A stretch of 8,373 nt of DNA from the IMG/VR virus record IMGVR_UViG_2671180432_000009; one strand, 5' to 3'. The notes beneath the pieces are model-generated. The model was not told the DNA's origin and ran no database searches. It saw only the letters and a list, made by a program, of their open reading frames with translations. Position 1 is the stretch's first letter; each line of letters starts with the position of its first letter. The translations under genes were made by a program, and so were the position numbers. Positions 2,077-8,373 of the stretch are shown piece by piece. This DNA comes from a virus (lineage: Duplodnaviria; Heunggongvirae; Uroviricota; Caudoviricetes).

Positions 2077-2186
2077 TACTTAACAGAACTTTTATTTTTG
2101 ACAAACATAAAATATTTTCAACAATATCCTGAGCCAGGTATATTTCAGTATAAGGCTCTGCCGGAAGGAATCTGGAAGAATGAATA

Positions 2187-2262
2187 TGGCGCGCTGTACT
2201 GGATTCGAACCAGTGACCGATTGCTTAGAAGGCAATTGCTCTGTCCGGTGAGCTAAAGGGCC
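2187..2262 (-). tRNA. tRNA-Arg(UCU)-like gene, 76 nt; acceptor stem pairs at only 3 of 7 positions (possible pseudo or hybrid tRNA)
   Basis: Minus-strand read GGCCCTT-TA-GCTC-ACCGGACA-GAGC-A-ATTGC-CTTCTAA-GCAAT-CGGTC-ACTGG-TTCGAAT-CCAGT-ACAGCGC-G-CCA. D, anticodon (UCU) and T arms are canonical; 5' GGCCCTT does not pair with 3' ACAGCGC. Confidence 0.6.
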
Positions 2263-2271
2263 GGGAGCAGA

Positions 2272-2300
2272 ATAATAACGGTCCGTAATTAATTCCGCAA
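2272..2300 (-). promoter_or_regulatory. Putative sigma70 promoter for the tRNA-Arg-like gene
   Basis: Minus strand: -35 TTGCGG (2300..2295), 17-nt spacer, -10 TATTAT (2277..2272), about 10 nt upstream of the tRNA 5' end; homologous to the tRNA-Ile upstream region. Confidence 0.35.
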
Positions 2301-2325
2301 TAAAAAACCCGCTCGGCGGCGGGTT
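2300..2325 (-). terminator. Intrinsic terminator (tR'-like), copy 1
   Basis: Minus strand AACCCGC-CGCCGA-GCGGGTT followed by TTTTAT; identical to the copy at 4196..4221. Confidence 0.6.
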
Positions 2326-2372
2326 GTAGAAACTCTTCTAACGTCAGGCATAAAACGCCCATAGTTATGACG

Positions 2373-2400
2373 AATTTACCACAGATTCCGGAAAAATCAA
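2373..2400 (-). promoter_or_regulatory. pR'-like promoter, copy 1
   Basis: Minus strand: -35 TTGATT (2400..2395), 16-nt spacer, TGG-TAAATT extended -10 (2378..2373); identical to the copy just past the Q stop. Confidence 0.4.
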
Positions 2401-2417
2401 CCTAGTTACCTTTTTTA

Positions 2418-2607
2418 NNNNNNNNNNNNNNNNNNNNNNNNNNNNNNNNNNNNNNNNNNNNNNNNNNNNNNNNNNNNNNNNNNNNNNNNNNNNNNNNNNN
2501 NNNNNNNNNNNNNNNNNNNNNNNNNNNNNNNNNNNNNNNNNNNNNNNNNNNNNNNNNNNNNNNNNNNNNNNNNNNNNNNNNNNNNNNNNNNNNNNNNNNN
2601 NNNNNNN
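2418..2607. other. Run of 190 N (unresolved or masked sequence)
   Basis: Directly visible; lies between the repeat copy and the tRNA-Ile 3' end. Confidence 1.
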
Positions 2608-2615
2608 GTTTGTGA

Positions 2616-2691
2616 TGGTGGCCCTTGCTGGATTTGAACCAGCGACCTGGCGATTATGAGTCGCTCGCTCTCACCACTGAGCTAAAGGGCC
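2616..2691 (-). tRNA. tRNA with CAU anticodon, tRNA-Ile2 (lysidine) type
   Basis: Minus-strand read GGCCCTT-TA-GCTC-AGTGGTGA-GAGC-G-AGCGA-CTCATAA-TCGCC-AGGTC-GCTGG-TTCAAAT-CCAGC-AAGGGCC-A-CCA. Acceptor pairs 7 of 7; one A-C mismatch at the top of the anticodon stem. Closely resembles E. coli ileX and phage ileZ as recalled. Confidence 0.85.
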
Positions 2692-2700
2692 GGGAGCCGC

Positions 2701-2729
2701 ATAATAACGACGCGTAATTAATTCTTCAA
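2701..2729 (-). promoter_or_regulatory. Putative sigma70 promoter for tRNA-Ile
   Basis: Minus strand: -35 TTGAAG (2729..2724), 17-nt spacer, -10 TATTAT (2706..2701), 9 nt upstream of the tRNA 5' end. Confidence 0.4.
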
Positions 2730-2731
2730 TA

Positions 2732-3729
2732 TCATCCGTTCTGGCTGACTAAATCCTGTACTTCCCGAACCGTCTGCTCAAAACGTTCAGTCTCCAGCTC
2801 AACGCCAATTGCACGACGCCCGAGCGCCAGTGCCGCTTTCACTGTCGAACCCAACCCCATGAAAAAATCTGCAATCAGGTCACCCGGACGACTGCTAGCG
2901 CTGATTATCTGCTGCAGCATTTCTGCCGGTTTTTCGCACGGATGTTTCCCGGGATAGAACTGCACCGGTTTATGCGTCCACACATCGGTATACGGCACCT
3001 GCACCGTCACGCCAAAATACCGCCGCAGATGTTTATATTCACTCAGCAGCTCCGCATACTGCCGGTTCAGTGAGGTATACGTATCCACCAGCTGGTGGTG
3101 GAGCTTTTCCAGTTCACCACGCCGATGCTTCTCTTCTGCCACCCGGGCAAACAGCGCCTGTAATTTCAGATAATCGCTTTCATTCGGCAACTGCCACTGA
3201 CCGGCACTGAACCAGTGCGACACCATGTTTTTCTTTCCTGTGGCATCTGCAATCTGTTTTGCCGTTATCCCCAGGGCAGCTCGCGCATCACGAAAGTAAN
3301 NNNNNNNNNNNNNNNNNNNNNNNNNNNNNNNNNNNNNNNNNNNNNNNNNNNNNNNNNNNNNNNNNNNNNNNNNNNNNNNNNNNNNNNNNNNNNNNNNNNN
3401 NNNNNNNNNNNNNNNNNNNNNNNNNNNNNNNNNNNNNNNNNNNNNNNNNNNNNNNNNNNNNNNNNNNNNNNNNNNNNNNNNNNNNNNNNNNNNNNNNNNN
3501 NNNNNNNNNNNNGTTTCAGCACCCGCCAGAACTGCGCCAGACACTGGTCCAGCCACTTCAGGTAATCATCGTCGCCCTTCCACTGGTTATCCCAGCCCTC
3601 AGGCTTCACTTTAAAGTACGGCGGGTCCGTGACTATCAGGTCAACAGAATTTTCGGGTAACGACCGGATAAATTCCAGGCAGTCGGCGTTGATTAACTCA
3701 CAACTGGATATTTTTACAGTATTAAGCAT
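2732..3729 (-). CDS. DNA methyltransferase, beta-class N6-adenine (or N4-cytosine) type; middle part lost in the N-run 3300..3512
   Basis: N-terminal segment (3729..3513) has motif IV DPPY (LIVTDPPYF); C-terminal segment (3299..2732) has motif I FxGxG (DFFMGLGST). The order IV then I indicates beta class. The two segments are in different frames if the N-run length is taken literally. Confidence 0.8.
3300..3512. other. Run of 213 N (unresolved or masked sequence) inside the methyltransferase gene
   Basis: Directly visible. Confidence 1.
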
Positions 3730-3821
3730 GGATCATTAAGCCTGTCTCTGATAGGCTCATTCTGCTTTTGCGCAAAGCAGTGGGCCTGAGGTTTGCTTGT
3801 GAACCCAACGCATGAGCAGAT

Positions 3822-3852
3822 GGCTGGTGGGTGCCCCTAACACCCACCAGCC
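3822..3852. promoter_or_regulatory. Perfect 12-bp inverted repeat (GGCTGGTGGGTG / CACCCACCAGCC, 7-nt loop) upstream of the methyltransferase start
   Basis: Seen directly; no U-tract on either strand, so not a classic intrinsic terminator. Candidate operator or RNA structural element about 90 nt upstream of ATG 3729. Confidence 0.5.
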
Positions 3853-3867
3853 GCCCATTTACCACAA

Positions 3868-3893
3868 ATAAAAAAGCCTTCACTGCGGAAGGC
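3868..3893 (-). terminator. Intrinsic terminator overlapping the stop codon of the small HTH gene
   Basis: Minus strand GCCTTC-CGCAGT-GAAGGC followed by TTTTTTATTT; the TGA stop (3882..3880) sits in the loop and stem. Confidence 0.55.
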
Positions 3894-4077
3894 GTCTGTA
3901 ACAACCGAACTGATAGTCTGCCAGACCCGCCATAACCAGCTGGGTCAGTATTAACTGGCAGCGTTCGCGTGAAAGGTAAGTATTCTGCGCTATCTCCCCG
4001 ACTGTCGCCGGTTCGGTAACGCTTAATTCATTAAACACCACTCTGGCGGTTTCTGTCATATCCTGCTGTTTTAGCAT
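3880..4077 (-). CDS. Small DNA-binding protein with a helix-turn-helix-like segment, 65 aa
   Basis: AAGGA Shine-Dalgarno 6-7 nt upstream of ATG 4077; the segment TVGEIAQNTYLSRERCQLILTQLVMAGL resembles an HTH recognition region. Family not recognised. Confidence 0.5.
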   Translation of the reverse strand: MLKQQDMTETARVVFNELSVTEPATVGEIAQNTYLSRERCQLILTQLVMAGLADYQFGCYRRLPQ

Positions 4078-4195
4078 GTCTTTTCCTTTTCCGGTTAACG
4101 TGACACACCAATAACTCTTGTCGAAAAAGCCAGCAAGCTGAAAGACAGGTATTCACCGCCACCAGCGCGTTTACTGTACTGACGCGATTTCAGTC

Positions 4196-4221
4196 ATAAA
4201 AAACCCGCTCGGCGGCGGGTT
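4196..4221 (-). terminator. Intrinsic terminator (tR'-like), copy 2, about 80 nt past the Q stop
   Basis: Minus strand AACCCGC-CGCCGA-GCGGGTT followed by TTTTATG. Confidence 0.6.
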
Positions 4222-4268
4222 GTAGAAACTCTTCTAACGTCAGGCATAAAACGCCCATCGTTATGACG

Positions 4269-4296
4269 AATTTACCACAGATTCCGGAAAAATCAA
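4269..4296 (-). promoter_or_regulatory. Late promoter (pR'-like) immediately downstream of Q, copy 2
   Basis: Minus strand: -35 TTGATT (4296..4291), 16-nt spacer, TGG-TAAATT extended -10 (4274..4269); the predicted transcript to the terminator is about 65 nt, as expected for a short Q-modifiable pR' transcript. Confidence 0.45.
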
Positions 4297-4301
4297 CCTT
4301 G

Positions 4302-5123
4302 TTACCTAGTTACCTTTTTTAACTGCCGCTCAGCCCATGCTTCTTCAATATCAAACCGGGTCACCAGCGCATCATAAAATTTCTTAACTGTTTTTTCCCA
4401 TGACGCGCGTGTTATCTGGTTTGTCACCTCGCATATAGCATTAAATGCCTCCGTTGATGGTAGTCTTTCATAGCCACGACCACCACAACGCTGGCAGTCT
4501 CTGATAACAGGCATACCACGTTTTACCGACTCTTCACGATGAATGGCGACACCACGCCCACGGCAATCCTTACAGGCGGTGGAAACCTCACCCTTTCCGC
4601 CACACTCCGGACAGGCAACTTTTACCACCTCCCTGACTTTTTTCCATTCTTCCCAGTAAGACGGATACACACCTTTCGTACACTTTGCCCATACCGGCGG
4701 CTTACCATCCGGATACTGGACCTTGTTTGTAAAAACTACGCTTTCAATAAATTTTTCCCCATAGCAACAAGGGCACTGCTTTTTACTCGCTGCGCTGCGG
4801 GCATAATCCTCAAAAGCGTACGAAGCCATAATGCGCATCACTACCGGTTTTATTTCTGCCGGAAGTTTTCTCAACGCCGCCACACGATCGCACCGACTGA
4901 GTGCATAATCTGCCAGTAATTCTGTTGCCCGCGCCCTGTCATTCATACTGATGCCCATTTTCCCCAGGAACGCAGAAAACCCCATCTCAGCCCGATTCTG
5001 TGTCATGCCCTGCGCGGCCATCACATCAGTGATACTCAGCGCATCTTTCGACGTTGAGGCCGATGCATCAGTCAGGCCGGGGGATTTTGGGGAGTAGTAT
5101 TTCGGTAAATCTTCCAGTTTCAT
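4302..5123 (-). CDS. Late-gene antiterminator Q-like protein, 273 aa, with four DnaJ-type CxxCxGxG repeats
   Basis: Position is diagnostic: directly downstream of rusA with an ATGA start/stop overlap and directly upstream of the promoter/terminator unit and tRNA genes. Size fits the long Qin-type Q proteins as recalled. Repeats CPCCYGEK, CPECGGKG, CKDCRGRG, CQRCGGRG are visible. Confidence 0.6.
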   Translation of the reverse strand: MKLEDLPKYYSPKSPGLTDASASTSKDALSITDVMAAQGMTQNRAEMGFSAFLGKMGISMNDRARATELLADYALSRCDRVAALRKLPAEIKPVVMRIMASYAFEDYARSAASKKQCPCCYGEKFIESVVFTNKVQYPDGKPPVWAKCTKGVYPSYWEEWKKVREVVKVACPECGGKGEVSTACKDCRGRGVAIHREESVKRGMPVIRDCQRCGGRGYERLPSTEAFNAICEVTNQITRASWEKTVKKFYDALVTRFDIEEAWAERQLKKVTR

Positions 5124-5500
5124 TTTTTGACCTGCCCTTCAAGCATTATGGGATAAATCTTCACCCCCAGACGTCCACCAGATACTGGCTGAGCACGAAC
5201 GATATTGATTTCATCAAACTGCTCATCGTCCATTAGCAACCCCGCATGCGTCAGCGCATCCAGCGGCGCTTTCAGAATATTGTCCAGGTCACGGCGGCGC
5301 TTATCCGGTGGTTCTGCAATAATTTTTATTGCCAACCTTCCGGACAGGCTTAATTTCAGCCGCTGCTGGCGAACAATAAGCGCCACTGCCCGGCGATAAC
5401 GCTCCCCGGCTTTTGATACAAAATATGTGCTGCCACGACGACGCCAGTAAGTGTTCACCGTCGGCGGGTAAGGTAAAACAAATTCTATGCGCTCGGTCAT
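5120..5500 (-). CDS. rusA: Holliday junction resolvase RusA (crossover junction endodeoxyribonuclease)
   Basis: 126 aa; N-terminal PYPPTVNTYWRRRG and catalytic-region RRRDLDNILKAPLDALTHAGLLMDDEQ closely match the RusA family as recalled; typical position upstream of Q. Confidence 0.9.
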   Translation of the reverse strand: MTERIEFVLPYPPTVNTYWRRRGSTYFVSKAGERYRRAVALIVRQQRLKLSLSGRLAIKIIAEPPDKRRRDLDNILKAPLDALTHAGLLMDDEQFDEINIVRAQPVSGGRLGVKIYPIMLEGQVKK

Positions 5501-6559
5501 TTATGCTTTCCACTTCAGAACACCCGAATTTCTCGCGTGCATTAAAAAACGAATCAGCAACAACAGCTGACTGCCGTGTTTCTCTTCAAAATCTTTTACT
5601 CCGGCATGTAGTTCGTTACGGCATTTACGGCATAACGGAATAACAAACAAATCATCAGCCTTTGTTCCCATCCCTCCCAGTCCATGACCAATGATGTGAT
5701 GCGGATCATCTGCCTGATTGCCACACGTCATGCATTTCTGCGTTTTTACCCAGCGCGTGTATACAGGCATCTCTTCCCGTTGTGATTTCTGGCGCTGGAG
5801 ATACTGAGCCGGTGACTCCGGATCAACGGCAATGCTGACCACCGTCTTTTCCTGTGGTGGGTTCTGTTGCTGGTGGACGTGAGGCAGTAACGCAATATTT
5901 TTTGTGCGCTGCTTCAGTATGCTGGTGGCTGTCTGCTCTCCCGGTATGATGTCGCTTTCACTGTACACAGAGCGAATTTTTTCCGCACGCAACCCCAGCG
6001 AACGACGTAATACCGCTTCCGGTAGCGCGTCCGCCACCTGATTGCGGACCGCCCACCAGGATAATTCAGCCAGAGATAATTCACGCTCCTGCGTACCGCT
6101 TATTGCGTGACCGATGACGTCAATCATCCATGCTGACAGGTTTTGATGAGCAAGTTGCTCGAGTGATTCGGATGTCTGGTCACGCAGCTGGTTGTCGCAG
6201 TGCCAGCACAACACCATTGCGCCGGTACCATAACGGTGAATGACGGTTTCGCTGTGATGATAATCGCCGTGTGGCCACTGGCAGGATTTAATATGGCGCA
6301 ACAGCCAGTCAGACAATGCACCAGCACCACCAGCAGCACGAATCACCCGTGCGTTACTGAAAAACGGCAGCAATGTTTTGTCTTCCACCAGCGGCTGGCG
6401 AGCGGCAGGAACGACCCCGGACGGCAGATTACGCATGCTTTTTGGTTCCGGCTCCACCAGTATTCTGCCGTTATGGAATGCTGACATTGATTCACGGCCT
6501 GGCTTAACGATAACCAGACCGAGTTCCGGTACCAGAACAGGTCGAAGTAATACCCGCAC
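5501..6559 (-). CDS. DUF968-like protein (YdfU-like), 352 aa, Cys/His-rich C-terminal motif
   Basis: Size and position match the YdfU family of Qin-like prophages as recalled; C-terminal CMTCGNQADDPHHIIGHG...CRKCRNELH looks like an HNH or zinc-binding motif. GTG start at 6559 after GGAGG; start uncertain. Confidence 0.75.
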   Translation of the reverse strand: MRVLLRPVLVPELGLVIVKPGRESMSAFHNGRILVEPEPKSMRNLPSGVVPAARQPLVEDKTLLPFFSNARVIRAAGGAGALSDWLLRHIKSCQWPHGDYHHSETVIHRYGTGAMVLCWHCDNQLRDQTSESLEQLAHQNLSAWMIDVIGHAISGTQERELSLAELSWWAVRNQVADALPEAVLRRSLGLRAEKIRSVYSESDIIPGEQTATSILKQRTKNIALLPHVHQQQNPPQEKTVVSIAVDPESPAQYLQRQKSQREEMPVYTRWVKTQKCMTCGNQADDPHHIIGHGLGGMGTKADDLFVIPLCRKCRNELHAGVKDFEEKHGSQLLLLIRFLMHARNSGVLKWKA

Positions 6560-7039: not shown

Positions 7040-7068
7040 ATAAAAACAAAAACCCGCCGAAGCGGGTT
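7040..7068 (-). terminator. Intrinsic terminator of the hok/mok transcript
   Basis: Minus strand AACCCGC-TTCG-GCGGGTT followed by TTTTGTTTTTATTTT; about 70 nt past the hok stop. Confidence 0.7.
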
Positions 7069-7136
7069 AAGTGTGGGTGCATTGAGGATGCCTGACCCAT
7101 CAGAGGTGGCGAGGGATTTCTCCCCCGCCTGGTCTC

Positions 7137-7292
7137 TTACTCCTCAGGTTCGTAAGCTGTGAAGACAGCGACCTCCGTCTGGCCGGTTCGAATTCGTACC
7201 TCGCAGAGGTCTTTCCTCGTTACCAGTGCCGTCACTATGACGGTTAAACAGATGACGATCAGGGCGATTAACATCGCCTTTTGCTGCTTCAT
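7137..7292 (-). CDS. hok: Hok/Gef-family type I toxin, 51 aa
   Basis: MKQQKAMLIALIVICLTVIVTALVTRKDLCEVRIRTGQTEVAVFTAYEPEE closely matches the Hok/Gef family (HokD/RelF-like as recalled); AGGAG Shine-Dalgarno upstream. Confidence 0.85.
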   Translation of the reverse strand: MKQQKAMLIALIVICLTVIVTALVTRKDLCEVRIRTGQTEVAVFTAYEPEE

Positions 7293-7349
7293 AGCCTGCT
7301 TCTCCTTGCCTTTCGGCACGTAAGAGGCTAACCTAGATTTGCCGTTCAT
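7137..7349 (-). CDS. mok: Mok-like in-frame N-terminally extended reading frame (70 aa) overlapping hok
   Basis: ORF starts 19 codons upstream of hok in the same frame, as in chromosomal mokC/hokC loci as recalled. Confidence 0.55.
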   Translation of the reverse strand: MNGKSRLASYVPKGKEKQAMKQQKAMLIALIVICLTVIVTALVTRKDLCEVRIRTGQTEVAVFTAYEPEE

Positions 7350-7400
7350 AGATTGAGCCTCAGATTAATGTTAAGCGTCTTGCCGGACGCGTAATGTTAA
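7295..7400 (+). ncRNA. Expected position of a Sok-like antisense RNA opposite the mok translation-initiation region (boundaries not resolved)
   Basis: Inference from hok/sok architecture only; a weak plus-strand hairpin GCGTC-TTGCCG-GACGC lies at about 7364..7379. No promoter identified with confidence. Confidence 0.25.
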
Positions 7401-7468
7401 CTGGGGCTTTTCTCTATCTGCCTTTTGGTGTTCATGCCTGAGACAGATAGCCTCAAGCACCCGCTGCA

Positions 7469-8102: not shown

Positions 8103-8333
8103 TTAACCCGCAGTGCTTTCAACTGATGAGGGGAACAAAATCTTTTCATCAAACCCTGCATTCATATCATGAACAGCAACACACCAATCCATCGACGAAC
8201 GATTATCAAGAGCCTCCATGATTTCATCCATGCGGCGTAGGTCATACAGGTAAATGCTTTTATCGCCAATGGTGTAAAAGCCAATTTTTTTCGGTGATGG
8301 ATGAGGTGTACTGGCAATAGCGGACACTACCAT
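8103..8333 (-). CDS. Hypothetical protein, 76 aa
   Basis: Six-frame ORF; first gene of the coupled block; its first 10 codons and upstream region lie in the right inverted repeat. Weak Shine-Dalgarno. Confidence 0.5.
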   Translation of the reverse strand: MVVSAIASTPHPSPKKIGFYTIGDKSIYLYDLRRMDEIMEALDNRSSMDWCVAVHDMNAGFDEKILFPSSVESTAG

Positions 8334-8373
8334 TTGTTCTTTTTTTAAGCAGCCATCTGATGATATTTTTCCC
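8302..8373. repeat. Right terminal inverted repeat (partner of 1..72)
   Basis: See 1..72. Confidence 0.9.

Follow-up and report, generated by a model that had tools for sequence, protein, structure and literature searches.

The stretch of DNA analysed here, 8,373 nucleotides (nt) of a Caudoviricetes virus (IMG/VR record IMGVR_UViG_2671180432_000009; hereafter the window), carries a DNA methyltransferase gene whose start codon is directly preceded by a leader RNA of about 137 nt, here called R1. The leader is very probably a real RNA structure maintained by selection. On balance, the evidence favours a reading of the whole locus as a lambdoid late-operon (“moron-site”) cassette, in which an enzyme of the M.EcoGI/GII type stands behind a leader that would act as a translational gate. 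Positions are those of the window, in which all features of interest lie on the minus strand, and the features on which the argument depends are the following.

3729 (ATG) to 2732 (stop), minus strand: methyltransferase of the M.EcoGI/GII family (by sequence), split by a run of N at 3300-3512
3730..3866, minus strand: leader RNA R1, about 137 nt, ending at the methyltransferase ATG (covariance-model match 3727-3866)
3853..3858, minus strand: invariant AUGGGC, which pairs with GCCCA (helix P1) or with GCUCAU at 3812-3817 (helix P1alt)
3781-3785, minus strand: 3′ strand of helix P1, UGGGC:GCCCA
3822..3852, minus strand: helix P2, the 12-bp inverted repeat (arms 3841-3852 and 3822-3833)
3792..3820, minus strand: helix P3, UUCGCUCAUG:CACAAGCGAA (5′ arm 3811-3820, 3′ arm 3792-3801)
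3762..3780, minus strand: helix P4, CUGCUUU/AAAGCAG

The Methyltransferase

An earlier note on this DNA, made from the letters of the window, had placed a beta-class DPPY methyltransferase downstream of the late antiterminator gene Q and a terminator. This placement held: the upstream gene encodes an Antiterm-family protein, a terminator scan found a terminator-like hairpin followed by a T-run 3′ of Q (4221..4202), and the order of motifs, DPPY and then FxGxG, is that of beta-class enzymes. The first motif (as DPPYF) lies in the visible N-terminal 72 amino acids (aa) and the second (as FFMGLGST) in the visible C-terminal 188 aa. Compared with the M.EcoGII reference sequence (PMC11551740, supplement 5; machine-read text with a few evident errors), the visible N-terminal part is identical at 72/72 aa (100%) and the visible C-terminal part at 164/185 aa (88.6%). 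The full-length homologue from E. coli (locus L001) consists of a single N6_N4_Mtase domain (Pfam PF01555, E=5.8e-43), and a PDB sequence search with the methyltransferase returned distant beta-class enzymes only and no M.EcoGII structure. Judged by these similarities, the window enzyme is almost certainly an orphan beta-class N6-adenine DNA methyltransferase of the M.EcoGI/GII family.

According to the accessible part of the report by Murray et al. (2018; PMC5778455), M.EcoGII methylates adenines irrespective of the surrounding sequence, lysogens do not express it, and it belongs to a large prophage-borne family, and phage 1720a-02 carries a very similar enzyme; this phage is among the best DNA matches to the window (94.6% identity). 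Expression of M.EcoGII is harmful (PMC12707154). By analogy with this characterised homologue, the window enzyme would be expected to share both its specificity and its toxicity.

From its ATG to its stop codon the gene measures 998 nt, which is no multiple of 3, and a literal count of the 213 N puts its two visible parts in different frames. The earlier note had proposed to resolve the N-run in order to obtain the full gene, and the run was therefore compared with relatives: L001, L002 and L093, at 92-95% identity, each have 274 nt at this place, 61 nt more than the window, and none of them is the source sequence.

Conservation and Association of the Leader RNA

A protein-anchored scan with one genome per species yielded 80 methyltransferase loci, and nearly all Enterobacterales loci among them carry the leader directly 5′ of the methyltransferase ATG. 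Sixty distinct leader versions were aligned (MAFFT). Nucleotide identity of the leader to the window-type sequence is 0.67-0.83, above that of both flanking genes; for the methyltransferase gene the values are 0.58-0.77 overall and 0.34-0.53 at third codon positions. Where a small gene precedes the leader, the spacer between it and the methyltransferase measures 138-153 nt throughout, even with small proteins about 48% and methyltransferases about 62% identical. A covariance model finds the window leader at 3727-3866 with 129 bits (E=1e-29) and matched 69 loci, including non-seed matches in four Vibrio (E=5e-8 to 6e-6) and one Gilliamella (E=0.003). Among the virus contigs of IMG/VR, 110 of the 117 evaluable matches to the leader pattern have a DPPY open reading frame (ORF) within 420 nt on the 3′ side, and the other seven comprise three truncated or sequence-damaged copies of the locus and four unrelated chance matches. 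The minimum free energy predicted for the window leader is -74.9 kcal/mol (z=-4.0).

Rfam 15 has no match at E<=1 on the minus strand over 3727-3866 of the window, nor in eight diverse relatives, and the sole Rfam match at the leader (P26, plus strand, E=0.12) is at chance level. The Rfam models of the known small RNAs (sRNAs) AgvB, AsxR, Esr41, IsrK, STnc100 and Pas were also tested and do not match the leader. No non-coding RNA feature is annotated at the leader in RefSeq. The leader sequence was not found in the searchable literature, whose coverage is incomplete, a description elsewhere being possible; a literature search for structured RNAs linked to N6_N4 methyltransferases found nothing relevant, and surveys of candidate structured RNAs and of prophage sRNAs in enterohaemorrhagic E. 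coli do not mention it. Neither the leader RNA nor the small upstream gene is described in the accessible part of the M.EcoGII work (PMC5778455). R1 is thus apparently an undescribed RNA.

Helices and Covariation

RNAalifold recovered the structure partly from the MAFFT alignment, with the arms of P2 mis-registered; the structure was therefore drawn by hand, converted into a covariance model and used for re-alignment. The perfect 12-bp inverted repeat reported in the earlier note at 3822..3852 is confirmed in the window, where the arms of P2 are complementary at 12/12 positions around a 7-nt loop (RNA fold -26.5 kcal/mol). Across the family the hairpin takes 42 different sequences, in which bulges, internal loops and G-U pairs occur, and because it persists with such varied sequence its occurrence is far beyond chance. 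Providencia, Proteus, Serratia, Vibrio and Gilliamella have arms of entirely different sequence: those of Providencia read GACUGUAAAGGUG/CACCCUUACAGUC, and those of Gilliamella, wholly different in sequence, CUGAUACAUG/CAUGCAUCAG, with a P1 of UGGGG:CCCCA. Rather than a fixed palindromic operator, the repeat is one helix of a multi-helix RNA that bears bulges, G-U pairs and compensatory changes.

The arrangement of P1 to P4 in which P1, P2 and P3 form a three-way junction (fold B) was scored on the MAFFT alignment, which is not fitted to the structure. Its covariation is 0.119 there, compared with 0.066 in shuffles (0/500) and with 0.028-0.094 when the pairing partners are slid. In P3, six of the ten pairs have changed on both sides, and one of these pairs occurs as CG, UA, AU and UG. 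On the model-fitted alignment, two-sided changes affect 27 of 34 pairs versus 15.2 in shuffles, a figure that leans towards the model.

A 12-bp hairpin could also be read as an intrinsic terminator. This candidate was rejected: there is no U-tract, the stem being followed by AUCUGCUCAUG on the sense strand and by GCCCAUUUACC on the other strand, and the terminator scan does not report it.

Two Folds and a Proposed Translational Gate

Folded singly, most of the sequences have their energy minimum not in the three-way junction but in a different arrangement, fold A, in which AUGGGC:GCUCAU extends P2, GGCCCAC:GUGAGCC extends P4 and, in most relatives, GGUCAC.AAGCG forms a long-range helix with CGCUU.ACUGAUC, which immediately precedes the AUG. 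In fold A, 83% of cells are paired and covariation is 0.141 versus 0.105 in shuffles (0/500). Two-sided changes are found in four pairs of the long-range helix and in three pairs of the extended P4, whose closing pair (columns 87/122) occurs as GC, AU and GU; the changes in P1alt are pairing-compatible only (UA/UG, GU/GC). Fold B engages the 5′ strand of the long-range helix in P3, whose 3′ arm overlaps the strand that alternatively pairs with the start region of the methyltransferase. The two folds share nucleotides and are mutually exclusive, with a predicted gap of 0.2-2.8 kcal/mol in enterobacterial sequences. A Shine-Dalgarno (SD)-like motif is absent before the methyltransferase AUG in 40 of the 60 leaders. 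In the Vibrio members, GUCAUA(AG), the 3′ strand of P3, complements the sequence around the AUG of the ORF that follows.

The proposed mechanism also involves the elements between Q and the leader, which are, in order of transcription:

5123..4302, minus strand: Q-type late antiterminator, 273 aa, QuuQ/QuuD-like (Pfam PF03589 Antiterm, E=6.2e-55; PHROG 127)
4189..4307, minus strand: copy A of a 119-nt repeat (family D1), holding the late promoter region with TGTGGTAAAT at 4270-4279, a short leader and the terminator tR′ (the hairpin 4221..4202 and its T-run)
4077..3880, minus strand: small winged-helix ORF, 65 aa (PHROG 331)
3866..3893, minus strand: second terminator-like hairpin, GCCTTC-CGCAGT-GAAGGC followed by T6 (stem 3893..3876), overlapping the stop codon of the small ORF

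The Q homologue in a homologous E. coli locus is annotated as “antitermination protein.” From its position, the late promoter in copy A is probably TTGATT-N16-TGgTAAATT, which scores under the scan threshold. Relatives have a GC-rich counterpart of the second hairpin directly 5′ of the leader, even where the small ORF is lacking.

According to the mechanism that we propose, transcripts would start at the late promoter just 3′ of Q and would end at tR′ and at the second hairpin unless RNA polymerase is Q-modified, and the cassette would be silent in the lysogen and expressed late in the lytic cycle. The enzyme would methylate adenines across the replicating phage DNA before packaging, a presumed role by which the progeny would be shielded from many restriction systems; among the alternatives offered in the earlier note, an anti-restriction methylase with regulated expression is the one that fits best. 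Fold A would bury the nucleotides just before the SD-less AUG, and fold B would free the start region. The leader would then be a translational gate that keeps the toxic enzyme off until a signal favours fold B. Such a signal might come from the winged-helix protein or the methyltransferase itself, from a small ligand, from cleavage of the long hairpin by RNase III, or from a ribosome that completes translation of the upstream ORF. As predicted from these models, control of translation through alternative folds has, in our estimation, slightly less than an even chance of being correct. More tentatively still, the leader could represent a class of cis-regulatory RNA not described before and widespread among the temperate phages of Enterobacterales, Vibrio and Gilliamella, a bistable three-way-junction switch gating a toxic, non-specific methyltransferase. 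Such a switch might respond to a ligand, to an action of the winged-helix protein on RNA or to the enzyme. By the same tentative reasoning, it might be a functional analogue of the com-mom system of phage Mu built from unrelated parts.

Several points weigh against the gate. The two-fold model is a matter of thermodynamic prediction and covariation, and in the window itself the start region is predicted to be equally accessible in both folds. An RNA stem over the start region is predicted in most family members, with some covariation, and is not evident in Hafnia (L087) or in L119, neither of which has an obvious long-range helix. Helix P1 is nearly invariant, and many of the double changes part only two clades (Enterobacteriaceae and Morganellaceae), which leaves a modest number of independent events, smaller than the number of cells counted. 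The tests of RNA versus DNA are weak as well: the sense strand is the more stable one in 31 of 42 P2 versions, a weakly positive outcome, and the count of G-U against A-C is confounded by alignment register and by two conserved C-A/A-C positions in P3. Dependence on Q is deduced from the layout, the promoter having failed the consensus scan. Finally, the methyltransferase of the window may be disrupted, with its 998 nt and an N-run 61 nt short.

A Possible Processing Element or Riboswitch

The leader could instead be an element of RNA processing or stability, which we regard as unlikely. The irregular hairpin of about 19 bp formed by P1alt and P2 would be an RNase III site comparable to those of the lambda N leader or sib, or else a 5′ stabiliser separating the message for the methyltransferase and the tRNAs from upstream RNA, and effects on expression would arise through cleavage or decay. 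A long, nearly perfect duplex is indeed present in all members, directly 3′ of a terminator-like hairpin and within a long polycistronic late transcript whose tRNAs need processing. Yet such an element leaves the conserved junction strands, P3, P4 and the long-range pairing of the start region unexplained, and in Vibrio and Gilliamella P2 is cut to 5-8 bp with internal loops, which makes it a poor substrate for RNase III.

It is a little less likely again that the leader is a ligand-sensing riboswitch, with the P1/P2/P3 junction as an aptamer for S-adenosylmethionine (SAM), S-adenosylhomocysteine (SAH) or a nucleotide signal and the long-range helix as expression platform. The architecture, with covarying helices in the 5′ untranslated region (UTR) and a possible expression platform, is compatible with this class, of which a ligand is the defining feature. 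Conserved junction nucleotides (joining strand AACCAAG) are set among variable, covarying stems, the two exclusive folds are of similar energy, the placement in the 5′ UTR of a SAM-dependent enzyme is invariable, and in 22 loci the leader stands without the small protein. However, there is no likeness to any Rfam riboswitch class, those for SAM and SAH included; a single gene family is associated with the leader, with no metabolic logic towards a ligand; and in Vibrio the leader precedes a Com-like ORF, not the enzyme itself. Moreover, the timing of late phage genes usually depends on proteins and transcription rather than on metabolites.

The Small Winged-Helix Protein

The 65-aa protein upstream of the leader matches PHROG 331 (E=1.4e-37). 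Its Pfam match to TrmB (E=0.0026) is under the cut-off, and it has no NCBIfam match. An AlphaFold2 model from an alignment of 25 sequences has a pLDDT (predicted local distance difference test) of 91.2 and the topology H-H-H-beta-beta, and on this model we are confident that the protein is a stand-alone minimal winged helix, a helix-turn-helix (HTH)-like fold. Its neighbours in Foldseek are generic winged-helix proteins only, all at E>1e-3: MarR, OhrR and IclR, dimerisation domains of O-methyltransferases and the RNA-binding domain of SelB. Taken together, Pfam, NCBIfam, AlphaFold2 and Foldseek indicate that it is not a C protein of the Xre/HTH_3 type, and it lacks a Cys4 motif. The earlier description of an HTH-like protein of 65 aa with its own terminator was accurate (winged helix at pLDDT 91; hairpin 3893..3876 followed by T6).

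Homologues of the small protein include SfV orf47 and phiP27 L23, and a small gene stands 5′ of the methyltransferase also in phiNP, mEp460 and phages of Hafnia, Morganella and Providencia. It adjoins the leader in 47 of 69 genome loci and in 95 of 110 virus contigs. In the other 22 of the 69 loci it is absent, the hairpin and the methyltransferase are kept, and unrelated genes or a mere terminator lie on the 5′ side. Given these 22 loci and the DPPY ORFs that follow the leader in the virus contigs, the leader belongs to the methyltransferase and does not require the small protein, which is a frequent but dispensable companion of the enzyme.

These data bear on a further suggestion of the earlier note, a controller protein joined to a methyltransferase in one module. 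In this scheme the HTH protein would act as a C-type controller, the 12-bp palindrome would be its operator on DNA, and expression of the methyltransferase would start from a promoter of its own, marked by TGTGGTAAAT. The confident winged-helix fold, the frequent adjacency to the leader and the position of the palindrome between the small gene and the methyltransferase would all suit such a controller. Against it, the fold is not Xre/HTH_3-like, no restriction gene is present, and the small gene is dispensable. As for the palindrome, its arms contain single-base bulges, internal loops and G-U pairs and differ entirely in sequence across genera, and it is embedded in further covarying helices. 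The module can therefore hardly be maintained, and we consider it very improbable. It keeps a small probability because a symmetric operator co-evolving with its binder would also give correlated changes in the arms and because the tests of strand asymmetry, such as the comparison of sense and antisense stability of P2, are not decisive.

The promoter that this scheme requires was not found either. TGTGGTAAAT occurs at 3857-3866, 4270-4279 and 2374-2383, and only two of these copies are independent, since the last belongs to a duplicate of the 119-nt segment. The 10-mer is expected 0.01 times by chance; the window as a whole contains 68 distinct repeated 10-mers, versus about 28 in shuffles. 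Relatives carry TGTGGTAAT, TGTGAAAAT or TGTGAAAT in its place, and a promoter scan over 3730-3900 gave no promoter-like site. As a promoter, TGTGGTAAAT was accordingly rejected: repeated 10-mers are commonplace, the motif is not conserved, and no promoter-like site lies there. Its presence upstream of the hairpin had been noted correctly, one position off (3857-3866, not 3858-3867), and a role as a second pR′ extended -10 is not supported.

It is equally improbable that the conserved stretch is an independent sRNA gene or encodes a leader peptide read from the invariant AUG (MGGWWV...): AUGGGC is indeed invariant and prophage late regions are rich in sRNAs (STnc100 and sok in the window, others described by Tree et al.), but the ORF from this AUG varies from 3 to more than 45 codons, mostly 7 with a stop in the P2 loop, has no SD and encodes a peptide that is not conserved past MGG(W), no promoter-like site lies upstream and no terminator at the 3′ end, and the leader always abuts the next start codon. 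The leader-peptide version was rejected on the length of the ORF, which is not conserved.

Distribution and Context of the Cassette

The gene order of the window (Q, terminator, small ORF, terminator, leader, methyltransferase, tRNAs) recurs in SfV, phiP27, phiNP and mEp460 and in phages of Hafnia, Morganella and Providencia. DNA like that of positions 2100-4400 is present in 3383 of 5426 complete E. coli genomes and in 292 phage records, mostly of Stx2 phages. The cassette and the enzyme family are thus already known and very common in lambda-like phages. In E. coli 042, Q, tR′ and the tRNAs are present without the cassette, which is for this reason regarded as an optional insert; pR′ is a known moron site.

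As the earlier note had observed, no restriction endonuclease partner is visible: a nuclease gene beside the cassette is found neither in the window nor in most annotated relatives. The only nuclease seen near the cassette in any relative is encoded in phiP27 (L002), where a 409-aa gene of the GIY-YIG nuclease family lies between Q and the small winged-helix gene (4929-6158, minus strand); it is more likely a homing-type insert than a restriction partner.

Decayed copies of the cassette also occur. In L192 (2146-2480), the leader is fused to the 3′ end of the methyltransferase through an internal deletion, and in L238 and L014, 3′ of the small ORF, leaders break off after P2 and unrelated AT-rich DNA takes over.

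Relation to Known Systems

The closest characterised enzymes, M.EcoGII and M.EcoGI of E. coli O104:H4 C227-11, are orphan, prophage-borne beta-class N6_N4 enzymes of about 349 aa that are silent in lysogens, according to the accessible part of PMC5778455, and the window enzyme resembles them in these respects. The M.EcoGII locus and the window cassette share relatives in phage 1720a-02 and other enterobacterial phages. Unlike in M.EcoGII, the N-run conceals the target-recognition region of the window allele, and the reading frames on either side of the run do not join.

Direct homologues of the whole cassette, leader included, lie between Q and the lysis or stx genes in SfV (orf47-orf48) and phiP27 (L23-L24), and the block “hypothetical protein - DNA methylase - ileZ/argN/argO” of Stx2 phages is another, likewise with the leader. 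These records annotate the genes only, with no function or RNA feature, and the duplicated promoter/terminator between tRNAs is particular to the window.

A functional parallel would be com-mom of phage Mu, in which the zinc-ribbon protein Com opens a stem hiding the mom start. Both Mu Mom and methyltransferases of the window type are toxic, broadly acting DNA-modifying enzymes encoded at the end of a late transcript and silent in the lysogen (PMC12707154), and in both cases a small ORF lies immediately upstream and an RNA structure is predicted over the start region. On the other hand, the window encodes a winged helix in place of the zinc ribbon and a methyltransferase in place of Mom, and its leader, an RNA of several helices and about 137 nt, shows no likeness in sequence to the Mu site.

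In Vibrio relatives, a Com-like Cys4 ORF is placed between leader and methyltransferase (best Pfam match Zn_ribbon_Com, E=0.0016, under the cut-off). These ORFs encode 36-42 aa (L152 2328-2438, L153 2341-2466, L156 2325-2453 and L167 2329-2439). The SD of the Vibrio methyltransferase (GGAGGCACU) can pair with an upstream AGUGCC, which resembles the translation-inhibition stem of Mu mom. Methyltransferase homologues of Vibrio, Aliivibrio and Psychromonas have another conserved upstream motif, GAUGCCUUGAGUACCUGAGACCCA ... GGAGAGGAAGCA ... hairpin ... GUAUUCAAGGCUC, with a long-range complementarity GCCUUGA/UCAAGGC. It is found in L157, L159-L165, L170 and L172 (about 40-190 nt upstream of position 2501) and, 5′ of the leader, in L152 and L153; its representative in L159 has no Rfam match.

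Type II restriction-modification systems with C proteins (PvuII, Esp1396I) likewise combine a small protein of DNA-binding fold beside a methyltransferase with a nearby inverted repeat. They differ from the window cassette, which has no endonuclease, a winged helix rather than the five-helix Xre fold, a small gene that is dispensable, and a repeat that lies 3′ of the small gene rather than in its promoter and varies like an RNA stem. Translational riboswitches, RNA thermometers and the RNase III site of the lambda N leader share with R1 alternative pairings in a 5′ UTR, one of which occludes, or in R1 is predicted to occlude, the ribosome-binding region; unlike the described riboswitches and thermometers, the leader has no homology to any Rfam family.

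M.EcoGII is widely used as a reagent for chromatin footprinting and for tagging with N6-methyladenine, and the cassette is carried by thousands of prophages of pathogenic E. coli, in many Stx2 phages just upstream of stx. How phages silence and then switch on such a toxic methyltransferase is not described. An RNA gate, if true, would explain silence in the lysogen beyond simple termination, would bring a new RNA family to light in a thoroughly studied part of lambdoid genomes, and would offer both a compact natural off-switch for the expression of toxic enzymes and a testable parallel to Mu com-mom. If the leader were only a processing site, the locus would be an ordinary, already known phage methyltransferase cassette.

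Other Features of the Window

The remaining genes around the cassette and the second copy of the promoter/terminator segment are listed below.

5′ of Q in gene order, minus strand: gene for a DUF968/HNH protein and RusA gene
2616..2691, minus strand: tRNA with CAT anticodon, ileZ-type, annotated as tRNA-Ile in relatives
2293..2411, minus strand: copy B of the segment with the Q 3′ end, promoter and tR′, 96% identical to copy A, between the two tRNA genes
2187..2261, minus strand: tRNA-Arg (TCT), argO-type

The duplicated 119 nt (2293-2411 and 4189-4307) comprise the last codons of Q, the presumed late promoter and the tR′ terminator. Copy B is missing at the equivalent place in the closest E. 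coli loci, where the gap between tRNA-Ile2 and tRNA-Arg is 100 nt only. It could be a recombination scar or a mis-assembly, and the 190-nt N-run beside it may hide a remnant of the Q 3′ end. N-runs lie at 254-470, 1374-1609, 2418-2607 and 3300-3512, and their lengths disagree with homologous loci (236 N versus about 30 nt; 213 N versus 274 nt in three relatives); the masked lengths may be arbitrary, or the window may be structurally different at these places. The two ends of the window, 1-72 and 8302-8373, are perfect reverse complements (72 nt, 100%), and the alignment to an E. coli relative ends at 8301. This arrangement suggests an artefact of the assembly graph or else the border of an inversion between two prophages.

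A 111-aa ORF on the plus strand (735-1070) has no Pfam match; its counterpart in a homologous E. coli prophage is annotated “anti-adapter protein IraM.” A weak isrK-like match lies at 7047-7128. The prophage sRNA STnc100 (RF02076) is matched over its full length at 1096-1285 on the minus strand (133.6 bits, E=5e-30), and a hok/sok type I toxin-antitoxin module occupies 7137-7462 on the same strand, with the Hok ORF at 7349-7137 (Pfam HOK_GEF, E=3e-23) and the sok RNA at 7462-7287 (112 bits).

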